Shown here: positions 3,955-13,949 of the stretch, piece by piece
How positions within the stretch are numbered: position 1 is the stretch's first letter
How the letters are laid out: each line of letters starts with the position of its first letter
NCBI RefSeq assembly: GCF_002920895.1
Contig: NZ_PQVG01000003.1
Coordinates: 259,879-291,878, forward strand
From: Flavobacterium alvei
GTDB lineage: Bacteria > Bacteroidota > Bacteroidia > Flavobacteriales > Flavobacteriaceae
Reading direction: 5' to 3'
DNA length: 32,000 nucleotides
Translations under genes and position numbers: made by a program
The notes under the pieces: model-generated
Seen by the model: the letters and a program-made list of their open reading frames with translations, nothing else
Databases searched by the model: none
What the model was told of the DNA's origin: nothing

Positions 3955-5280
3955 ATGGATATTAAAAGAGTAGCATTAGACGCAGTAAACGAAACAATTG
4001 TAATGACAGTTGTTCATATGGATTACAAAGGTCAAGTAGCCAAAAGAATAAACGAAAAAATGCCTTTGGCACAAGTAAAAGGTTTTAGAAAAGGAGCCGT
4101 GCCTAAAGACCTTGTTGAAAAACAATACGGAAAAGCAATCAAACAAGAAGAAATTAAAAAAGTGGTTGATTTGGCTTTAGAGCGTTACATCCAGTCTGAA
4201 AGATTGAATCTTTTGGGAACTCCGCTTCCTAAAGTAAACGAAAACTTGGATTGGTCTGCCGAAGAATTAACTTTTGAATTCGAAATTGGTTTGGTTCCAT
4301 CTTTCGAAATTGATTTGGATGCTAAAAACGACATCATTAAATATGTGGTTACTGCCGACGATAAATTGATTGACGGTCAAGTGGCTCGTATCCAAAAACA
4401 ATTTGGAACTGCAATTCCTCAGGATGTTGTAACTGAAGGTGCTGATTTGAAAGGTATTTTTACCAACGAAGCGGAAGGAATTGGAAATGAAACTACGATT
4501 TCTTTGTCTGTTTTCAAAGACAAAGCGACTGCCGATAAATTCATTGGTAAAAAAGTAGGTGATGTTGTGACTGTAAACACAAGCGGTTTATTCGAAGACG
4601 ATCACCAATTGATGGATTACTTGAAAGTAGGCCACGATAATGTACACGGTTTGGCTATTGATGTTGATTTTACTATCGAAGCCATCACTATTTCTGAACC
4701 AGCTGAATTGAATCAAGAATTGTTCGACAAATTGTTTGGTGCTGGAAATGTGGCTTCATTGGAAGACTTGAAAGCAAAAATCAAGGAAGATGCTGAATCT
4801 CAATTTGCTGCTCAAGCAGATCAAAAATTATTAGGAGATGTAACCGAGTTTTTAATCGAAAACACAAAATTCGATTTGCCGGCTGAATTCCTTAAAAAAT
4901 GGTTGCAAACCGTTGGTGAGAAAAAATTATCTCCAGAAGAAGCTGAAGTGGAATATGCACGTTCTGAAAAAGGATTGCGTTTTCAATTAATAGAAGGAAA
5001 AGCATTGGCGCAAAGCGACATCAAAATTACTTTCGAAGATTTGAAAACTTTTACAGCTAAAAATATCCGTCAGCAAATGGCACAATTCGGGCAAACGAAT
5101 CCAACCGACGAAGAAGTTCAAGGAATCGTGGCGAGAGTTTTGTCTAACCAAGAAGAAGTGAAAAGACTTTCAGACCAAGTGGTTGCAGAGAAATTGTTGG
5201 AAATTTTCAAAGAAAAAGCCAATCCAACAACCAAAGAAGTAACTTACGAAGAATTTATTGCTGCGTCTTACGGAGAATAA
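3955..5280 (+). CDS. tig: Trigger factor
   Basis: 441-aa ORF with the ribosome-binding signature GFRKGAVP near the N-terminus. It sits immediately upstream of clpP-clpX, the classic tig-clpP-clpX synteny. Confidence 0.88.
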   Translation: MDIKRVALDAVNETIVMTVVHMDYKGQVAKRINEKMPLAQVKGFRKGAVPKDLVEKQYGKAIKQEEIKKVVDLALERYIQSERLNLLGTPLPKVNENLDWSAEELTFEFEIGLVPSFEIDLDAKNDIIKYVVTADDKLIDGQVARIQKQFGTAIPQDVVTEGADLKGIFTNEAEGIGNETTISLSVFKDKATADKFIGKKVGDVVTVNTSGLFEDDHQLMDYLKVGHDNVHGLAIDVDFTIEAITISEPAELNQELFDKLFGAGNVASLEDLKAKIKEDAESQFAAQADQKLLGDVTEFLIENTKFDLPAEFLKKWLQTVGEKKLSPEEAEVEYARSEKGLRFQLIEGKALAQSDIKITFEDLKTFTAKNIRQQMAQFGQTNPTDEEVQGIVARVLSNQEEVKRLSDQVVAEKLLEIFKEKANPTTKEVTYEEFIAASYGE

Positions 5281-6257: not shown

Positions 6258-7490
6258 ATGGCAAAACCAAAATTAGAATGTTCATTCTGTGGAAGAAAAA
6301 AACCGGAAACCAATTTATTGATTGCCGGAATCGATGCGCACATTTGTGATAAATGTATCGAACAAGCCCACGGAATTGTAGTAGAAGAATTAAAATCAAG
6401 TAGCAAAAATCATTTGCCTACGGACTTGGTTTTAAGAAAACCAAAAGAAATCAGGGCTTTTCTGGATCAATATGTTATTGGTCAAGATCAAACCAAAAAA
6501 GTAATGGCGGTGGCGGTTTACAATCACTACAAACGTTTGATGCAACAAGAATTGCACGACGAAGTGGAGATTGAAAAAAGTAATATCATAATGGTGGGCC
6601 AAACCGGAACAGGGAAAACATTGGTGGCCAAAACCATTGCCAAAATGCTCGATGTTCCCTTGGCAATTGTTGATGCGACCGTATTGACGGAAGCTGGTTA
6701 TGTGGGAGAAGATGTCGAAAGTATTTTGACACGACTTTTGCAAGCCGCCGATTATGACGTGACCAAAGCCGAAAGAGGCATCGTTTTCATTGACGAAATT
6801 GACAAGATTGCCCGCAAAAGCGACAATCCATCCATCACTCGAGATGTTTCGGGCGAAGGCGTGCAACAAGCTTTGTTGAAATTATTAGAAGGAACGGTTG
6901 TCAATGTGCCACCAAAAGGAGGACGTAAACACCCAGACCAAAAATTTGTTGAGGTGAATACTCAAAATATTTTGTTTATTGCTGGTGGTGCTTTTGATGG
7001 TGTGGAAAGAATTATTTCCAAAAGACTAAACCGTCAAGCTGTTGGTTATTCAACTTCCAAAAATGTGGACAATATCGACAAAGATAATTTGTTGCAATAC
7101 ATCATCCCGAAAGACATCAAGGACTTTGGATTAATTCCTGAAATCATTGGTCGTTTGCCGGTGTTGACGCATATGGATCCTTTGGATAGGGAAACCTTGA
7201 GAGCGATTTTGACACAACCCAAAAATGCGTTAATCAAACAATATCAAAAGTTATTTTTGATGGATGAGGTGGAATTCAGCATCACGGACGAAGCTTTGGA
7301 TTTTATTGTGGACAAAGCTTTGGAGTACAAACTCGGAGCCCGTGGATTGCGTTCGTTGTGCGAAGCCATCCTGACCGATGCGATGTATGAATTGCCAAGT
7401 TCTGATGATAAAACATTGGAAATCGACGTGGATTACGCCAAAGAAACTTTGAATAGAAATTTATTGAAACGATTGGAAATCGCTTCGTAA
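6258..7490 (+). CDS. clpX: ATP-dependent Clp protease ATP-binding subunit ClpX
   Basis: 410-aa ORF with an N-terminal C4 zinc ribbon (CSFCGR...CDKC), Walker A (GQTGTGKT) and Walker B (IVFIDEIDK). Confidence 0.95.
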
Positions 7491-7520
7491 CTCAATTTCA
7501 AGCTCAATAAAAAGTAAAAT

Positions 7521-7553
7521 AAAGCTCAAAAACGTATGTTTTTGAGCTTTATT
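7521..7553. terminator. Bidirectional terminator between the convergent clpX and island genes
   Basis: 13-bp perfect stem (aaagctcaaaaac / gtttttgagcttt) with a 4-nt loop. Both arms are A/T-rich. Confidence 0.65.
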
Positions 7554-7577
7554 CGTTAATGATGGGAGCTTGATAAA

Positions 7578-8702
7578 TTAAAATCTATTCTTAATAATAT
7601 AAAAAGGAATTTCGATTCCAATTTTTGCCAAAGCTTCTCTTTGTTTTAGATGGTAATTTAAATTGGATAAATCATCTTCAAAGCTATCGTCATTATATTT
7701 TTCCCTATATTCATTATCGTTATAAACGCAATATTTTTTGAGCAACTCCTCGTTTTTGGGGCTGTAGTTATTATAAAAATGATAGGCTTCCATACATTCT
7801 TGTCCGTGAAATAGAATTATGGATTTATTATCAAAATTAAAATTTACGAATCCTTTATCAATATTGGTGCTGTATTTAAAATCATAGGGAGTTTGGTCAA
7901 AAATGGGGTAATACTTTACAATCCAATCAATATAATGTTGCTCTGTTTGGAATGTTTTATATTGTACATTAGCCAGTTGGATGAGCTTTAAGTTTGTATT
8001 GAAATAGTCTTTTCTTCTTTTTAAATTGTAATATAAATGAGTAAAAGGAGTCCATTTCATTGTGGGTTCAAAAAAATCATACTCGCCAATTCGTTCAGAC
8101 AAAACAGCATATTTATCAACCCAATAACATAATTGTTCAAAGTCTAACAACTGTGGAGGATTAGTGCATATTTCAGCAAAGGCTTTCTCGGCAGCATTTA
8201 CTTTATATAGATATTCAGGTGTTTTTACAAAAGAGGTAAGTTCATCCTCATCAAACTCCAGACTAGCCTTGCACTCCAGGTATTCAATAGTTTCGGTAGT
8301 CGCGAAACGGGAACAATCATAAATATTGCTGATGTTTTCATCTACCAATTCAAAAATAAAATCAAAATAATTATGAGAATGATTGCCCACAAACCGATAT
8401 CCTGTTTTTCCACAATTATCGCAGTGGCTAATCTCGGCACCACATTTTCCTTGATACGCTATATAATAGTCATCACCTATTTTTTTATGCGCTAGGTATA
8501 ATTCTTCTAACTTCTCCAAAAAAACTTCCTTGGTGGCATCTTGATAGGTTTTAGCATCATCCAAAAGGACTTCCAAAGCCGCAATATTCATTTCGGTAAA
8601 GGCTTTTATTATATGTTCCGCCTTTGTTGGTTCTTGTGCAGCATCGCCCTGATTGTCTAATGCAGCGAGTTGTTCGAGTAGTTTTTGTTTTTCAGGAGTC
8701 AT
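7578..8702 (-). CDS. Hypothetical protein, island paralog B: shared Cys-rich module at the N-terminus plus a unique C-terminal extension of about 220 aa
   Basis: 374-aa ORF with an ATG start. Residues 1-150 align by eye with residues 113-271 of the ORF at 8797-9612 (EKQKLxEQL, IxKAxxEM, GxC...C...GYxFxGN, IFE, C..F, DEEL). Confidence 0.75.
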   Translation of the reverse strand: MTPEKQKLLEQLAALDNQGDAAQEPTKAEHIIKAFTEMNIAALEVLLDDAKTYQDATKEVFLEKLEELYLAHKKIGDDYYIAYQGKCGAEISHCDNCGKTGYRFVGNHSHNYFDFIFELVDENISNIYDCSRFATTETIEYLECKASLEFDEDELTSFVKTPEYLYKVNAAEKAFAEICTNPPQLLDFEQLCYWVDKYAVLSERIGEYDFFEPTMKWTPFTHLYYNLKRRKDYFNTNLKLIQLANVQYKTFQTEQHYIDWIVKYYPIFDQTPYDFKYSTNIDKGFVNFNFDNKSIILFHGQECMEAYHFYNNYSPKNEELLKKYCVYNDNEYREKYNDDSFEDDLSNLNYHLKQREALAKIGIEIPFYIIKNRF

Positions 8703-8714
8703 AATGGTTTTGTT

Positions 8715-8782
8715 TTATTTCCAACCCAAAGTTTTAATTATTTGGTTTCGGTAGGTGGTGGCCATTTGTTTTGGGGTGTTGC
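8715..8782 (-). pseudogene. 3'-terminal relic (about 21 codons plus stop) of a second ChaC/GGCT-like gene
   Basis: By hand alignment, 8721-8782 matches 9634-9695 (the 3' end of the intact 188-aa gene) at 55 of 62 positions. The relic translates as NTPKQMATTYRNQIIKTLGWK*, against NTPKQIATTYRKQIIEVLGWD* in the intact gene. No upstream coding part remains. Confidence 0.8.
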
Positions 8783-8796
8783 TGTTTTTTTCTAAA

Positions 8797-9612
8797 TTAG
8801 AAAGGCAAATCATCTAGTTCTTCATCTGTAAAATTGTAGGAGTCTAATTTTTTTTCTCGAGCTTTATTGATGAATATGTCATCCACTTTAAAACTATTGC
8901 ATTTACATATATCTGTACAAACTCCATTTTCTTGTTCAAAAATAATATTGCAATAGGAATTGGAATTGTTACCTATAAATGTATAACCACTAGTACCTAT
9001 ATTACAATCATAAGCATTACAACTTCCACTATGGGCTATTAATTGAGTGTCGTTGTTTTCTTTGAATTCGTTAAATTTTGACTTAATATATTTTAAAAAT
9101 TCTTCTCTTTTATACTTACTTAAATAATTTTCAGTCAAGATTTCAAGTTGTTCCAGATCCATTTCTGAAATGGCTTTTACAATAAGTTTATTTCGGCTAG
9201 AATCACTTTTGATAAAAGTAACATCGCCCATTTCCAAGAGTTGTTCAATGAGTTTCTGTTTCTCTTCTGACAATGCTGCAAATAATTGACTGTCAATATT
9301 TGTTTCAGAAATAGTTTCTATCTCTTCTACGCTTTCAGGTTTATTACCTACATTAGAAACCATCATAGTTGCTATTTCTTTCATACGTTTGTCTAGATTG
9401 GCTATGGTTTGTTCGGCGTGTTCTATACCAAATTGTGGTGCCAAGTCGTGTGCAAATGCTAAAGTAACCCATAATTCACAAACCGAATCTCCTTCTGTTT
9501 TGCATTCGCATCCTATATTGTCTTCAAGTTTAAAATTAACATCCTCTAAGCTACCGTTTTCCGATAATACCCGAACAACTTCATTGTAATGTGTACAGTT
9601 TTTGTAGTTCAT
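8797..9612 (-). CDS. Hypothetical protein, island paralog A: unique Cys-containing N-terminal domain of about 112 aa, the shared Cys-rich module, and an acidic DDLPF C-terminus
   Basis: 271-aa ORF with an ATG start 15 nt downstream of the preceding gene's stop. It ends ...YNFTDEELDDLPF. Confidence 0.75.
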   Translation of the reverse strand: MNYKNCTHYNEVVRVLSENGSLEDVNFKLEDNIGCECKTEGDSVCELWVTLAFAHDLAPQFGIEHAEQTIANLDKRMKEIATMMVSNVGNKPESVEEIETISETNIDSQLFAALSEEKQKLIEQLLEMGDVTFIKSDSSRNKLIVKAISEMDLEQLEILTENYLSKYKREEFLKYIKSKFNEFKENNDTQLIAHSGSCNAYDCNIGTSGYTFIGNNSNSYCNIIFEQENGVCTDICKCNSFKVDDIFINKAREKKLDSYNFTDEELDDLPF

Positions 9613-9627
9613 AATTCGTTTTTTTTT

Positions 9628-10194
9628 TTAATCCCAACCCAAAACTTCAATTATTTGTTTTCGGTAGGTAGTGGCTATTTGTTTTGGAGTGTTGCGAATG
9701 TATTCTTCGGCTAAAGCACTTTCAGCACCTTTTAAATTTTGTAGATATTCGATTCTATCGTTTGGGTCAATTGTTTTGATAACTACTTTTTCTTCATTTC
9801 TTATTTCCCAATTTTCAGGAAGATTTGTCCAAATTACGGCATCAAAATCAGTGGTTTGAATCCAGTTTTTAATACTTTCTTTAAACAGAAAATCTATTGG
9901 AGAAAATTCATCTTTAGTTTTATCATAATATCCAATGTTTTCTTTCACAGTTCCTTCACGTTTTTTAAGATTTAATACAGCCAAATCAAGGTTGTCAAAA
10001 CTAGAAACAGCATACAATGTTTGAACTTCTGTGCCATTTGGTGTAATGACCAATGTTAATCTTCCATCTTTAGAAATTCTAGCAAACTCAATGGGTAAAA
10101 CGGGGCCGTTTTCTTTCCAACCTATGTTTGTATCAAATTTTAAATCTTTGGGTTGCCAAATTAAGGAACCCCAACCGAGGACTGCTATTTTCAT
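9628..10194 (-). CDS. ChaC / gamma-glutamylcyclotransferase-like protein
   Basis: 188-aa ORF. The N-terminus KIAVLGWGSLIWQP resembles the ChaC motif FGYGSLIWxP. Further on, YAVS...LAVLNLKKREGTVKENIGYYDKTKDEFSP resembles the ChaC block around the catalytic Glu (Y.V...L.YL..RE...GGYD....F.P). The motif comparison is from memory; no search was run. Confidence 0.55.
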   Translation of the reverse strand: MKIAVLGWGSLIWQPKDLKFDTNIGWKENGPVLPIEFARISKDGRLTLVITPNGTEVQTLYAVSSFDNLDLAVLNLKKREGTVKENIGYYDKTKDEFSPIDFLFKESIKNWIQTTDFDAVIWTNLPENWEIRNEEKVVIKTIDPNDRIEYLQNLKGAESALAEEYIRNTPKQIATTYRKQIIEVLGWD

Positions 10195-10197
10195 AAT

Positions 10198-10866
10198 TTA
10201 TGATTTATCGCAGATATGCTTCATTTTGGCTTTGAAATTATCTCTTAATTCAGTGTTTTTTTCTAAATTTTCAAATGAATTGCCTGTATTTATTGCCTGC
10301 GCAATATTTTTATATGAAGTGCCTATTTGTATTGCCAACTTATATTTTGCAATTATATTTTCTAGTTCTTTTTGGAAATTTTCTCTAAAAATTATTTTTT
10401 CGCCATTAAAAACAAGCTTAGTTTGTTCAGTGTCAGAAAGAATTGTCCAACCGTTTTTAGTTTGTGTTTCGTGTAAACAAGCACATCTTACATTTATATA
10501 AAAATCGTAAGCTTTTGATTCCATTATCTTAAATGCATTATGATTTTTAAAAAATGACATAAAAACGTTTTTATTTCCTTTAAAACTATCTCCATCCATT
10601 TTAATATAGTGTGGATGTTCGTATTTCCAACCATTTATAAAACTTTCAATAGTTTCAATTAAAGAGCATTGCAAATTAACAACAGCAAATCCCTCACCGT
10701 TATTTATTTTTAGATCTAAAATTGCATTTATTGGATTCAAGTATCTTGTTCTTATCCTTTCTTCAAAAAAATGGAAAGCTAAACCCCATAATTCATCATT
10801 GTTTAGCACTAATTTTTTTTCTAAATCTTCCCAATCTTTAATTGTTAATTCTCCTGCGATTTTCAT
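10198..10866 (-). CDS. Hypothetical protein with an R-x4-H motif (possible HEPN-like)
   Basis: The ORF track extends to 10956 with a TTG start, but I prefer the ATG at 10866 (MKIAGELTIKDW...). It contains FYINVRCACLHETQTKNGW (R-x4-H). Its stop lies 3 nt from the ATG of the next gene. Confidence 0.65.
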   Translation of the reverse strand: MKIAGELTIKDWEDLEKKLVLNNDELWGLAFHFFEERIRTRYLNPINAILDLKINNGEGFAVVNLQCSLIETIESFINGWKYEHPHYIKMDGDSFKGNKNVFMSFFKNHNAFKIMESKAYDFYINVRCACLHETQTKNGWTILSDTEQTKLVFNGEKIIFRENFQKELENIIAKYKLAIQIGTSYKNIAQAINTGNSFENLEKNTELRDNFKAKMKHICDKS

Positions 10867-11035
10867 ATTGTAGTTTTTATAGTTTCTTAATTCAATAAAC
10901 CACTTAAAAGTATTCCGGTCTAATTTTCCATTCGTCAAATTACTTACAAGTAACAATCAAAGACATTGTATCTAATATTATGGATATTAGTCCTAAAAAT
11001 AAATAACGGTGAGGGATTTGGGTGTTTCTAATTTC

Positions 11036-11815
11036 TCACAACTCATTTGTATTTTGAATTTTTTCTTTCTGTTTGTTTCTGTATGATTTCTCTCTATATT
11101 CTTTTGATTTTATTTCTTTAATGATTCTATTTTTTAATTCTTGATAGTTTTCAACAGGTATATAATAAATAAATATTTTCATTCCGTAATCGTGAGTTGA
11201 AACGATATTTCCAATTACACTTTTTTCTTCTTCTTCTTTATTATGTTTAAAACCCATTGAAATTATAGGATCTTTTAATCCATAAAACTTTGTTCCAAAG
11301 AGGATATACTTATTTTGGTCTACAAATATTTTGTAATCATCACAATATTCTAAACCTATTTTTTCTAAATCAATCTTTGAAGGGATTTGGAGTTTATTTA
11401 ATTTGTATTTTTTATTTAAGATTTTAAAAAAATTATTTTTACACTTATCAAACCATATTCCTTTTTTTGAAAACTCTTTGGCGAATTTTTCATATAATAA
11501 ATAATATTTTTCTTGAACACTATATTCTTCAGAATAACTTAACTTAATTGAGTTTTGTCTTTTTTTGATTTCAAATAAAAATTCTTGACCATCAACCAAC
11601 AACGGAAATTTACCATCTTCAAGTTTACCATTTTTATTCAACTCTTTTATTTTAGTAGAAAATTCATTTTCGGACATATTTGGACTTAACCCTAAAAAAA
11701 TTGATTGATATGTTTTTTTTTCTTTTTTTAAAGGAATTTTACTTTTATCTAGTCTGTTATTACAACTTGAGAATAAAAAAATCAAGCAAATTATTTTTAT
11801 TAGTTTGGATTTCAT
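11036..11815 (-). CDS. Lipoprotein of unknown function
   Basis: 259-aa ORF with a signal peptide and lipobox (MKSKLIKIICLIFLFSSC). It has a Lys/Glu-rich C-terminus and no family I recognise. Confidence 0.7.
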   Translation of the reverse strand: MKSKLIKIICLIFLFSSCNNRLDKSKIPLKKEKKTYQSIFLGLSPNMSENEFSTKIKELNKNGKLEDGKFPLLVDGQEFLFEIKKRQNSIKLSYSEEYSVQEKYYLLYEKFAKEFSKKGIWFDKCKNNFFKILNKKYKLNKLQIPSKIDLEKIGLEYCDDYKIFVDQNKYILFGTKFYGLKDPIISMGFKHNKEEEEKSVIGNIVSTHDYGMKIFIYYIPVENYQELKNRIIKEIKSKEYREKSYRNKQKEKIQNTNEL

Positions 11816-11893
11816 AATTTTAAGTATTAAAGTATCATTTTTCAGTATATAACAATTCTATTTTTAATTCAAATAATGAATACTTGTATATAA

Positions 11894-12373
11894 TCACACA
11901 TCAAAAGGGCCAAACTCAATCAAACAATTTTCTCTTTCCTCATAGAGTTCAACGTATACTCCAAATTGATATCCTAATTGTTTCATATATTCATTTATTT
12001 TTAAATAGTCAAAATCTTTTTTTCTGTTTTTCCAAGACATTTTGATTTCAATTTCTGCTATATTTATACTCGTATCTCTTTTATGAATTATAATGTCTGG
12101 GTATACAAAACTATTTCCCTCTCCTGAATCTTCCCAATTCAATATTTTTCCCATTAAATTACCTAAATCATCGTGTTCATATTTTGTCCTCATCCTATTG
12201 TATTCAACGTCAACATCATATTTGTTATCAATAAATAGGTCAATATAATTTCCAAGTTTATTTGAAATTGTTCTTTCACCTATATTATATTCTTTTTTTA
12301 GTATCTTTTTTTCATTTAGATACAATCTGTCCAGTGATAAATGAATTATTTTTTCCAATTCCTCTCTATTCAT
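11894..12373 (-). CDS. Small PD-(D/E)xK-fold nuclease-like protein
   Basis: 159-aa ORF with the motifs in canonical order: a helix Glu (IGERTISNKL), VDVEYNR, the D of VYPDIIIHKR, and the ExK of IAEIEIKMS. Confidence 0.6.
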   Translation of the reverse strand: MNREELEKIIHLSLDRLYLNEKKILKKEYNIGERTISNKLGNYIDLFIDNKYDVDVEYNRMRTKYEHDDLGNLMGKILNWEDSGEGNSFVYPDIIIHKRDTSINIAEIEIKMSWKNRKKDFDYLKINEYMKQLGYQFGVYVELYEERENCLIEFGPFDV

Positions 12374-12713
12374 AATATATTAATTTTATTAAGTAAATTT
12401 TTTCTTTCACAAAAAAAGATTTGAAAAAGAGTAAAAAATAAAATGTATTCAAATATTAGTAAAAAAAAAGGAACTTAACAATACTGGTTATTCTCTCCAC
12501 AAATCTAAACCCTAATTTTCTATTCTCTTTACGGTTTTCCTCAAAGTCCGTTTTTTTATGTTAATTTAGAACGAATATGAGGTTGTGTTATTGTTGGTTA
12601 GTTTAAAATCAAGTTTGAACTTCCATTTTTCTCTTCCCAAAAAAACATCCAATATCCTTTTTTATCTACAATAGATTGTCGATTTTTGCCCATCTTAAAT
12701 TAATACAATACAA

Positions 12714-13949
12714 ATGGCACTAGTTGAGAAAGAGATTATTTTATTGAAAGTTTCAGGTCAGGATAAACCTGGGGTAACAGCTGGGCTGACTTCTATATTA
12801 GCTAATTATGACGCAGTTATTTTGGATATTGGTCAAGCCGATATTCACGATACATTATCTTTAGGTATTTTGTTTGAAATAAAAGCAGGTTCTAGTTCGG
12901 CAGCAGTTTTAAAAGACTTATTGTTCAGAGCGTATGAATTGGGTATTAATGTGAAGTTTATTCCAATATCTATTCCAGATTATGAAATTTGGGTAAAAGG
13001 TCAGCGCAAACAACGCTATATTATCAATGTATTGGGCGAAACTTTGACAGCAGCACAACTAGCGGCTGTGACTCAAATTATGTCAAACCAAAAATTGAAT
13101 ATCGATTCTATCATTCGATTAACGGGTAGGGTTTCGGTTGTAGAAAAAGAAGAATATCCGCGTTCTTGTGTGCAGTTGTCTGTGACTGGAAATATAAATG
13201 ATAAAACGCTAATGACTGCCAGTTTTATGGAAATTTCGAAGGAATTAAATGTAGATATTTCTTTCCAAGAAGACAATATGTACAGAAGAAACCGACGTTT
13301 GGTGTGTTTTGATATGGATTCAACCTTAATTCAAACCGAAGTAATCGATGAATTAGCCGAGTTGGCAGGAGTAGGCGAACAAGTAAGAGCTATTACTGAA
13401 TCAGCCATGAATGGCGAGATTGATTTTAGCGAAAGCTTCAAAAAACGCATGGCTTTGCTTGAAGGGTTGAGCGAAGATGTATTGCAAAATGTTGCTATCA
13501 ATTTACCAATAACCAAAGGAGCCCATCGATTGATGAAAGCCCTGAAATATTATGGATATAAAACGGCAATTCTTTCGGGAGGATTCACCTATTTTGGTGA
13601 TTATTTGCAAAAGGAATTAGGAATTGATTATGTCTATGCCAACCAGTTGGAGATAAAAGACGGTAAACTGACCGGAAAATATTTAGGTGAAATTGTTGAT
13701 GGTCAAAAGAAAGCCGAATATTTGAAAGCCATTGCCGAAAAAGAAGGCATCAATATCAACCAAACCATTGCAGTGGGTGATGGTGCCAATGATTTGCCAA
13801 TGTTGAATTTGGCGGGATTAGGAATTGCTTTTCACGCTAAACCCAAAGTAAAAGAAAGCGCAGCAACATCCATTTCTAGTTTAGGTCTTGATGGAGTTTT
13901 ATATCTATTAGGCTACCACGACCGACATATTGATATGATGCAAGAGTAA
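12714..13949 (+). CDS. serB: Phosphoserine phosphatase with N-terminal ACT-like domains
   Basis: 411-aa ORF with HAD motif I (FDMDSTLI) and motif IV (GDGANDLPM). The N-terminal region of about 190 aa is ACT-like. Confidence 0.9.
   Translation: MALVEKEIILLKVSGQDKPGVTAGLTSILANYDAVILDIGQADIHDTLSLGILFEIKAGSSSAAVLKDLLFRAYELGINVKFIPISIPDYEIWVKGQRKQRYIINVLGETLTAAQLAAVTQIMSNQKLNIDSIIRLTGRVSVVEKEEYPRSCVQLSVTGNINDKTLMTASFMEISKELNVDISFQEDNMYRRNRRLVCFDMDSTLIQTEVIDELAELAGVGEQVRAITESAMNGEIDFSESFKKRMALLEGLSEDVLQNVAINLPITKGAHRLMKALKYYGYKTAILSGGFTYFGDYLQKELGIDYVYANQLEIKDGKLTGKYLGEIVDGQKKAEYLKAIAEKEGININQTIAVGDGANDLPMLNLAGLGIAFHAKPKVKESAATSISSLGLDGVLYLLGYHDRHIDMMQE

Follow-up and report, generated by a model that had tools for sequence, protein, structure and literature searches.

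The polymorphic toxin loci cdiA, rhs and mafB are known to carry orphan toxin-tip/immunity cassettes behind a retained piece of the upstream gene. We describe an array with some likeness to these in a 32,000-nt stretch of the Flavobacterium alvei genome (NCBI RefSeq assembly GCF_002920895.1, contig NZ_PQVG01000003.1, positions 259,879 to 291,878 of the forward strand), hereafter the window. Its subject is an island of 4.8 kb between clpX and serB, with every gene of interest on the minus strand, in which an intact gene of ChaC/gamma-glutamylcyclotransferase (GGCT) fold (B) is preceded by a partner gene (A) and followed by two genes for cysteine-rich proteins (D271 and D374), the latter separated by a relic of the end of a ChaC-fold gene. 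We give a probability of roughly two in three to the reading that this relic is a recombination scar, left by the stacking of heterologous cassettes in a modular defence-island operon, and that it does not stem from local copying of B and D. The sole terminator-like hairpin of the region follows D374, and A-B-D271-relic-D374 therefore looks like one operon. In transcription order its features are:

10198-10866, minus strand: A, 222 aa from its ATG, ending 3 nt before the start of B, with an invariant R127-x4-H132
9628-10194, minus strand: B (the "ChaC-like" gene of an earlier note on this DNA), ChaC/GGCT fold, 188 aa, intact; the relic corresponds to its last ~27 codons (9628-9708)
8797-9612, minus strand: D271, Cys-rich gene, starting 15 nt after B
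8715-8793, minus strand: relic of a B tail, the last ~25 codons of a ChaC-fold gene, with its stop codon at 8715-8717
8703-8714, minus strand: spacer AACAAAACCATT, 12 nt from the stop of the relic to the start of D374, identical to the spacer between the intact B and D163 genes of locus L001
7578-8702, minus strand: D374, Cys-rich partner gene, with an NTF2/SnoaL-like N-domain and a helical C-domain, both as modelled
7517-7554, minus strand: terminator-like hairpin after D374
8710-10197, minus strand: mosaic block [B - D271 - relic], a unit shared with other genomes (loci L110 and L111)

Gene-tail scars and the homology-mediated stacking of cassettes are already familiar. By analogy with the contact-dependent inhibition (CDI), Rhs and MafB loci, a piece of a conserved upstream gene would stand before each displaced cassette and provide homology for swapping or stacking, and arrays of divergent paralogous downstream genes may likewise be seen behind one intact conserved gene. 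The two differ, however, in that the retained piece of the toxin loci precedes a variable toxin tip and the pair consists of a toxin and its cognate immunity protein, whereas the piece in the window is the very end of the gene, stop codon included, and B has no variable tip. Moreover, the downstream genes of the window type belong to unrelated families (D, the 183-aa membrane protein 183TM, and KilA-N), no secretion or delivery domain is present, and nothing shows the D proteins to be immunity proteins. A second comparison is with the toxin-antitoxin and abortive-infection modules that contain HEPN proteins (e.g. HEPN/MNT and the Abi families): A has an invariant Rx4H motif, which takes the form RNGxLH in distant homologues, it is tightly coupled to B (-4 to +22 nt), and small membrane proteins can take its place, as is common for effectors. 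Unlike HEPN proteins, A matches no HEPN model, and the enzyme it is paired with is of GGCT fold, not a nucleotidyltransferase. Like the known hotspots of defence islands, the clpX/serB site holds varied cargo in defence-type surroundings and no integrase; it departs from them in that part of the exchange would take place inside the island, through the conserved cargo gene B and not through the core flanks. What is new are the three protein families and their association, absent from every library searched and from the searchable literature, where no pairing of ChaC or gamma-glutamylcyclotransferase with HEPN, anti-phage or conflict systems was found.

The relic and its junctions

The earlier note had aligned 8721-8782 by hand with 9634-9695, near the end of B, at 55 of 62 positions. 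An ungapped comparison returns exactly this count, and the next best 62-mer in the window, on both strands, agrees at 32 of 62. In a gapped local alignment, 8687-8792 against 9598-9708 scores 105, as compared with 20.4 +/- 2.9 (maximum 33) for 500 shuffles, i.e. ~29 standard deviations above them. The minus-strand translation of the relic is (S)NTPKQMATTYRNQIIKTLGWK, ended by the in-frame stop codon that had been reported; a tblastn search with the 188-aa B protein retrieves the relic as well (NTPKQMATTYRNQIIKTLGW, E 2e-5). That the homology continues through the spacer to the start codon of the downstream gene also proved correct, though with indels (TAAAACAAAACCATT-ATG and TAAAAAAAAAAACGAATT-ATG). 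The earlier note was right about the gene end and somewhat short on its length: past a 3-nt gap the relic runs a few codons further 5', to ~8793, which makes ~25 codons instead of ~21. The relic lacks a start codon, and its frame is shifted by 1 nt relative to the stop of D271 before it. The segment does derive from a ChaC-fold gene, of which it preserves the 3' end. Taken alone, it is most likely an ordinary gene fragment, in the reading that we favour a non-functional scar of 79 nt.

Other identities for this segment were considered. An Rfam search of the relic matched no family, and its folding does not differ from that of shuffled sequences (z = 0.45): there is no stable structure and no hairpin or att-like structure, and a structured RNA was rejected. 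A template/variable repeat pair of a diversity-generating retroelement was also rejected, given that the open reading frames of the window include no reverse transcriptase and that the seven mismatches are of mixed types and not adenine-specific.

The window was compared with 129 fetched loci (L-numbers in what follows); counts of gene neighbours refer to ~89 non-redundant loci. In L001 (Flavobacterium sp. UBA5153, clpX/serB site) and L037, an intact B is followed after 12 nt by a D gene for a 163-aa protein (D163) that starts MTPEQQKL. This intact junction (...TTGGGTTGGAAATAAAACAAAACCATTATGACTCC) is the same as the relic-D374 junction of the window (GGAAATAAAACAAAACCATTATGACTCC), from which it follows that a ChaC-fold gene once stood directly upstream of a D374-type gene. 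The earlier note had proposed a two-gene ancestral unit, present twice; the adjacency of the two genes is thereby upheld, and the tandem duplication of the unit is not, as set out below. The D271-relic junction recurs in L110 (GCA_965191265.1), which lies elsewhere in the chromosome, and in L111 (JGI Ga0671657_0003748), which lies at the clpX site. In both, a KilA-N gene comes next after the relic and D375/D376 further on, with a YhcG-type gene between the two in L111, and the relic-KilA-N junction is that found between the intact B and KilA-N in L010 and L043. A shorter tail relic lies between the 183TM gene and D374 in L012, L109, L124/125 and L128/129. Finally, in L108 the tail comes directly after the stop codon of a helicase gene and is followed by 183TM-D354; this locus equals L012/L005 minus the upstream partner and codons 1 to ~163 of B, the homology beginning sharply at L108 position 510. 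Tail relics are accordingly found at three junction types in 10 loci (D271-relic; 183TM-relic-D374; helicase-relic-183TM-D354). In all three types they begin within a narrow stretch of B (codons ~160-176) and adjoin the stop codon of the gene before them, and their lengths vary by type (~55, 77 and 85 nt).

The tails of B co-vary with the next gene. A tail ending in GWD-stop with a poly-A spacer precedes D271 (window, L110 and L111), GWE-stop-TAAAACAAAACCCTGATGACTCT (also written TAAAACAAAACCCTGATG) precedes 183TM, GWK-stop-TAAAACAAGAACACAATG precedes KilA-N, and GWK-stop-TAAAACAAAACCATTATG precedes D163 or D374. The window relic bears this last GWK-stop/AACAA signature, unlike the resident B. 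It agrees with the B tails of L010 and L043 at 63 of 69 nt and with the resident B tail at 59 of 69 nt (86%), from which, with moderate confidence for so short a segment, it would appear to be closer to the B tails of other genomes than to its own neighbour.

Two observations on the same arrays may be added. The KilA-N gene (274 aa, PF04383; L010 722-1546, L043, L110 5168-5992, L111 3621-4445) has a constant insertion point, right after TAAAACAA behind the B tail, be it that of an intact B or of a relic. In L111, positions 4473-4545 (corresponding to window 9545-9617) reproduce, at 89% identity, the ~68 nt with which D271 begins and 5 nt upstream of them. This piece, situated between the KilA-N gene and the YhcG-type gene, is a scar of another kind within the array.

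Mosaic blocks and the origin of the relic

From the start codon of B to the end of the relic (8710-10197) the window is 93.3% identical to L110; identity is then 84% in D374, and none remains upstream of the block, where A gives way to a membrane protein, or past D374, the chromosomal sites being unrelated. To L111 the identity is 92.5% in this block, 73% in A and 84% in the stretch that runs from D374 into clpX, with KilA-N and YhcG between the block and D376. In L109, where 183TM precedes the relic, identity to the window amounts to 94.5% from the middle of the relic through D374 and to only 89% in B. Between the window and L012 (79%), the relic diverges no faster than the adjacent coding sequence. 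The relic is the seam between two independently travelling blocks.

A further mismatch is found in the divergence of the repeated parts. D271 and D374 are homologous over ~130 aa only, with 33% identity; over 127 aligned codons, this corresponds to 51% identity of nucleotides and 43% of third positions, which, in DNA as AT-rich as this, approaches saturation. The resident B tail and the relic, in contrast, agree at 18 of 23 third positions (78%). Since the two pairs diverge so unequally, one duplication cannot have given both without later gene conversion.

In our preferred reading, the order A-B-D271-[B tail]-D374 would be the product of recombination that joined two unlike versions of a modular defence-island operon. 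The body of B and its last ~80 nt would have acted as homology arms, B being conserved while its neighbours were swapped (among module versions its amino acid identity is 76-89%). A donor block [B-D271-B tail] would have replaced, by homologous recombination through the tail, the single B of a recipient locus, whose own downstream gene would have stayed behind the tail copy: D374 in the window, KilA-N in L110/L111. The first D271-tail junction, identical in three genomes, would for that reason have been made once, probably by an illegitimate join. Seen this way, the value of the relic is that of a marker: with its counterparts in nine further loci it would show how a Bacteroidota defence-island operon is rebuilt, whole blocks being exchanged through the conserved ChaC-fold gene and its last 80 nt with no integrase involved.

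Several points weigh against this account. The recombination is read from its end products, no donor/recipient pair having been caught in the act, and the preference for foreign tails comes down to four nucleotides and the spacer signature. An intact B directly before a D374-type gene is found in no surveyed locus, where B-D163 only was encountered; a direct forerunner of relic-D374 has thus not been seen. Had the resident B converted the relic, an old duplication might in principle have left a relic that looks young. All D374 genes that do not lie behind KilA-N or YhcG keep 55-85 nt of tail, across 72-94% protein identity, and the tail could be kept for a reason, for instance as a translation-initiation region, instead of being neutral. 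Context and one motif, finally, are the grounds on which the module is given a defence role and A is assigned to HEPN.

Among the other explanations, site-specific insertion survives best, unlikely as we consider it. Integrative elements that target gene 3' ends, as well as integron cassettes, leave displaced tail copies; similarly, an att site in the B tail would accept small circular cassettes that bring a replacement tail and displace the tail copy downstream. The narrow range of relic start points in three independent junction types, abutting stop codons, is what such insertion would produce, as are the co-variation of tails with the downstream gene and the single-gene KilA-N insert that always begins at the same point. 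No integrase or recombinase is found, however, in the window, the remainder of which consists of housekeeping genes, nor beside the module in the gene tables of the related loci. The relic has none of the att-like structure sought, its three lengths contrast with the fixed core to be expected, and the identity of the blocks spans the whole of B, as homologous exchange predicts.

Improbable in our view is the model of the earlier note, in which a [B-D] unit was duplicated in tandem, the second B was mostly deleted, and D374 was left as an orphan that neutralises a toxic B. Such a history would fit the geometry B-D-(B tail)-D, and D271 and D374 do share a homologous domain. Against an in-situ duplication stand the third positions (43% for the D paralogues, 78% for tail and relic) and the relic itself, which is nearer to foreign B alleles and has their stop-codon and spacer signature. 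In addition, [B-D271-relic] moves as a ~93% block between different flanks, preceding KilA-N in L110/L111, and relic-D374 is found behind 183TM in L109, L012, L124 and L128. Two intact B-D units in tandem occur in none of the 129 loci; the two B genes of L072 are 5.8 kb apart and belong to separate modules.

The idea of an orphaned neutraliser could find support in L108, which lost B and the upstream partner and in which the downstream genes persist; a toxic role for B could be imagined from the existence of harmful ChaC-fold effectors, such as the Ralstonia effector RipAY, which degrades host glutathione. D374 is, however, not orphaned, as an intact B lies 0.9 kb upstream in what appears to be the same operon, with no predicted terminator between them. 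Directly downstream of B we find a D gene in only 5 loci, as compared with a 170-aa family in 16, 183TM in 6, KilA-N in 2, other genes in 19, and no gene on the same strand in 18; eight loci have, instead of a downstream gene, a fused zinc-ribbon-like tail with four CxxC pairs on B itself. Homologues of D occur without B (L113, L114 and L116), and the partner that is conserved across phyla is A, which is fused to B in L100. A cognate toxin/neutraliser pair of B and D is therefore not supported, and the gene context argues against it. For annotation, the lesson is that a relic of this kind is no proof of a toxin/antidote pair and should not be taken as evidence for one.

Even less probable, we believe, is that the tail is functional, i.e. 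a promoter, an A-rich translation-initiation region or another cis element of the downstream gene that selection has kept. The D374-type genes not behind KilA-N/YhcG all retain, with the tail fragment, the same 12-nt spacer, and the divergence of the relic between the window and L012 would agree with such a constraint, although the relics are too short for a rate test. A weak sigma-70-like match (9/12) is present in the relic and at the homologous place in the intact B; promoter-like matches in the region do not exceed those in shuffles (38 versus 29 +/- 5.6, in a scan that does not model Bacteroidota promoters), and no TAnnTTTG motif was seen by eye in the relic. An internal promoter was thus rejected, the match being at background level and not a Bacteroidota-type motif. 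Furthermore, D354 and D375/376 manage with spacers of 8-14 nt and no tail. A chance likeness of AT-rich sequence, which has nothing in its favour beyond the low G+C content of the region, can be set aside in view of the 55 of 62 matches (next best 32), the score ~29 standard deviations above shuffles and the conservation of the relic in L110 and L111, by which chance is already refuted.

The ChaC-fold protein, its partners and the D family

The label "ChaC-like" given to B in the earlier note holds at the level of fold and motif and fails by every sequence model of that family. B has no Pfam (PF04752 ChaC, PF06094 GGACT) or NCBIfam match at E <= 0.1, and none in PHROGs or PADLOC, whereas the control, E. 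coli ChaC, matches PF04752 at 4e-57. Searches of PDB sequences with B, and with a profile of 31 B homologues, gave no significant match and no ChaC. An AlphaFold2 (AF2) model built on the 31 homologues has a predicted local distance difference test (pLDDT) score of 88 and a predicted template modelling (pTM) score of 0.83. In Foldseek its top three PDB matches are chains of human ChaC2 (E 1.5e-3, probability 1.00, template modelling (TM) scores 0.51/0.53), everything else having a probability of at most 0.23; the match is modest and points to similarity of fold, not orthology. W8, G9, S10, L11 and W13 of B are invariant in the 31 homologues, and hhalign pairs its GWGSLIW (IAVLGWGSLIWQP) with GYGSLMW (VWIFGYGSLMWNP) of E. 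coli ChaC. In the same alignment, at a probability of only 39%, the invariant R79-E80-G81 is paired with K-R-E127, the Glu of which (E80 in B, E127 in E. coli ChaC) would be the catalytic one.

With the ChaC/GGCT enzymes (E. coli ChaC, human ChaC2, RipAY) B would thus share the fold, ChaC2 being the nearest in the PDB, an N-terminal motif (GWGSLIW in B, GYGSLxW in ChaC) and an aligned conserved Glu. It is set apart from them by the lack of a Pfam, NCBIfam or PDB sequence match, by TM scores of only ~0.5, by a C-terminal helical third with no ChaC counterpart, and by its place in defence-island operons instead of a housekeeping context. We accept B, on the model and the kept motif residues, as a protein of probable ChaC/GGCT fold that is not a member of the curated ChaC family. 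The databases hold 1516 homologues of it, all unnamed and without Pfam annotation, mainly in Flavobacterium and further Bacteroidota; more remote members come from Acidobacteria-like contigs, and a few from viral ones. Seven such distant homologues (33-44% identity) are found in the predicted viral contigs L117-L123 (IMG/VR). In L024, L027-L032 and L061, B measures 289-310 aa and has a C-terminal extension of ~100 aa with four CxxC pairs, zinc ribbon-like; most of these loci lack a closely spaced downstream partner gene. Cys-rich modules recur, in unrelated forms, beside B or fused to it.

The place directly upstream of B is taken by A in 29 loci, by a 140-165-aa protein with 2-3 transmembrane segments in 19 and by a further family in 5, at a distance of -4 to +22 nt from B. 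A has 302 homologues without Pfam annotation, and its R127 and H132 (Rx4H, a HEPN-like motif) are invariant in 42 of its homologues. No HEPN family model matched A, no consistent Pfam family emerged over the 42 members, and the A profile found no PDB sequence match. In distant contigs from outside the Bacteroidota the order is B then A (L105, L085, L096, L104), and in L100 (6001-7350) both are fused into one 449-aa protein. The motif reads RNGVLH/RNGILH in L100 and L105 (RNGVLH in the fusion), which is the canonical RNxxxH form. A carries the HEPN signature motif and may, on that ground, be called HEPN-like.

The conserved and, it would seem, obligate partner of B is this HEPN-like-motif protein or a small membrane protein, and A or its membrane substitute would be the effector-type part. 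B itself would then be the conserved enzymatic hub of a candidate module of the defence or abortive-infection type, and the D proteins optional, stackable accessory cassettes, possibly sensor or specificity modules. Three uncharacterised families travel together here, the ChaC-fold hub, the Rx4H partner and the predicted NTF2-like Cys-rich accessory protein, and should the module be an anti-phage system, its component of gamma-glutamyl-cyclotransferase fold would be a new kind of part. A more far-reaching view, which we put forward only tentatively, is that the ChaC-fold family, with more than 1500 members and no Pfam, NCBIfam or PADLOC model, is the enzymatic hub of an undescribed multi-gene defence system, paired with a HEPN-like or membrane effector, and its conserved 3' tail a portable recombination handle by which accessory or sensor cassettes (NTF2-like Cys-rich proteins, 183TM, KilA-N) are stacked and pass between genomes; if true, this would be an integrase-free analogue of the orphan-cassette arrays. 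The module is a reasonable candidate for experimental work.

As regards the D proteins, D271 consists of a D163-like domain (residues 114-271, 57% identical to D163 of L001) and a private N-terminal extension of 113 aa (residues 1-113), which has homologues in L110 and L111 only. The extension has no similarity to other module genes; the idea that it arose by fusion of the 113-aa gene found after B in L038 was discarded for want of any similarity. D374 combines an N-domain (approximately residues 27-135, with three nearly invariant Cys) and a private C-terminal domain of ~240 aa that is helical and has no structural match. It has 63 homologues, some of them fused to TPR repeats. Its AF2 model has a pLDDT of 89. 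For the N-domain the best PDB matches in Foldseek are all NTF2-like and weak (E 0.05-0.2, probability up to 0.97, target-normalised TM 0.41-0.59); none reaches E 1e-3, and a Foldseek search of D374 against viral structures gave no match. The D family corresponds to no Pfam family, member-by-member Pfam scans yielding scattered noise. One D homologue, P0181, is labelled "RES domain" in UniRef; no RES domain was detected in it.

Surroundings of the module

The remaining features of the clpX-serB island and its flanks are:

11894-12373, minus strand: 159-aa protein, first in transcription order, matching the PADLOC model PD-Lambda-3_A (E 6.6e-17)
11036-11815, minus strand: 259-aa lipoprotein, second in transcription order
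6258-7490, plus strand: clpX, flank of the island
12714-13949, plus strand: serB, flank of the island

The 159-aa protein and the lipoprotein occupy the part of the island not taken up by the module. Family scans of the six island proteins (Pfam, NCBIfam, PHROGs and PADLOC) gave nothing beyond the PD-Lambda-3_A match of the former. The clpX/serB site has different cargo in at least seven Flavobacterium loci (L001, L010, L037, L038, L042, L111 and L128), and this intergenic site (window 6258-13949), without integrase, looks like a chromosomal hotspot for defence-type genes.

Other genes of defence type surround the module as well. Apart from the PD-Lambda-3_A homologue of the window, they include PLDc_2/DrmC-like and DnaJ-like proteins, AAA_15/DUF3696 ATPases with PIF1 helicases, UvrD helicases, NACHT and SIR2; genes of integrative and conjugative elements (RteC) are present as well. 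PADLOC, applied to the neighbour families (TM149, 183TM, c3, c7, the B-A fusion and a 318-aa protein), reported only a DrmC-like PLD, on a 453-aa protein. In this protein (L018 4598-5959) a PLDc_2 domain (HKD nuclease, DrmC-like) is combined with a DnaJ-like HPD segment. It is often found ahead of the B module and has homologues in L021, L022, L024, L025, L031, L044, L048, L051 and L058. It is adjoined by a WxW/LSxN repeat protein of 450-890 aa, some versions of which (e.g. in L027, 707 aa) end in an A-type domain.

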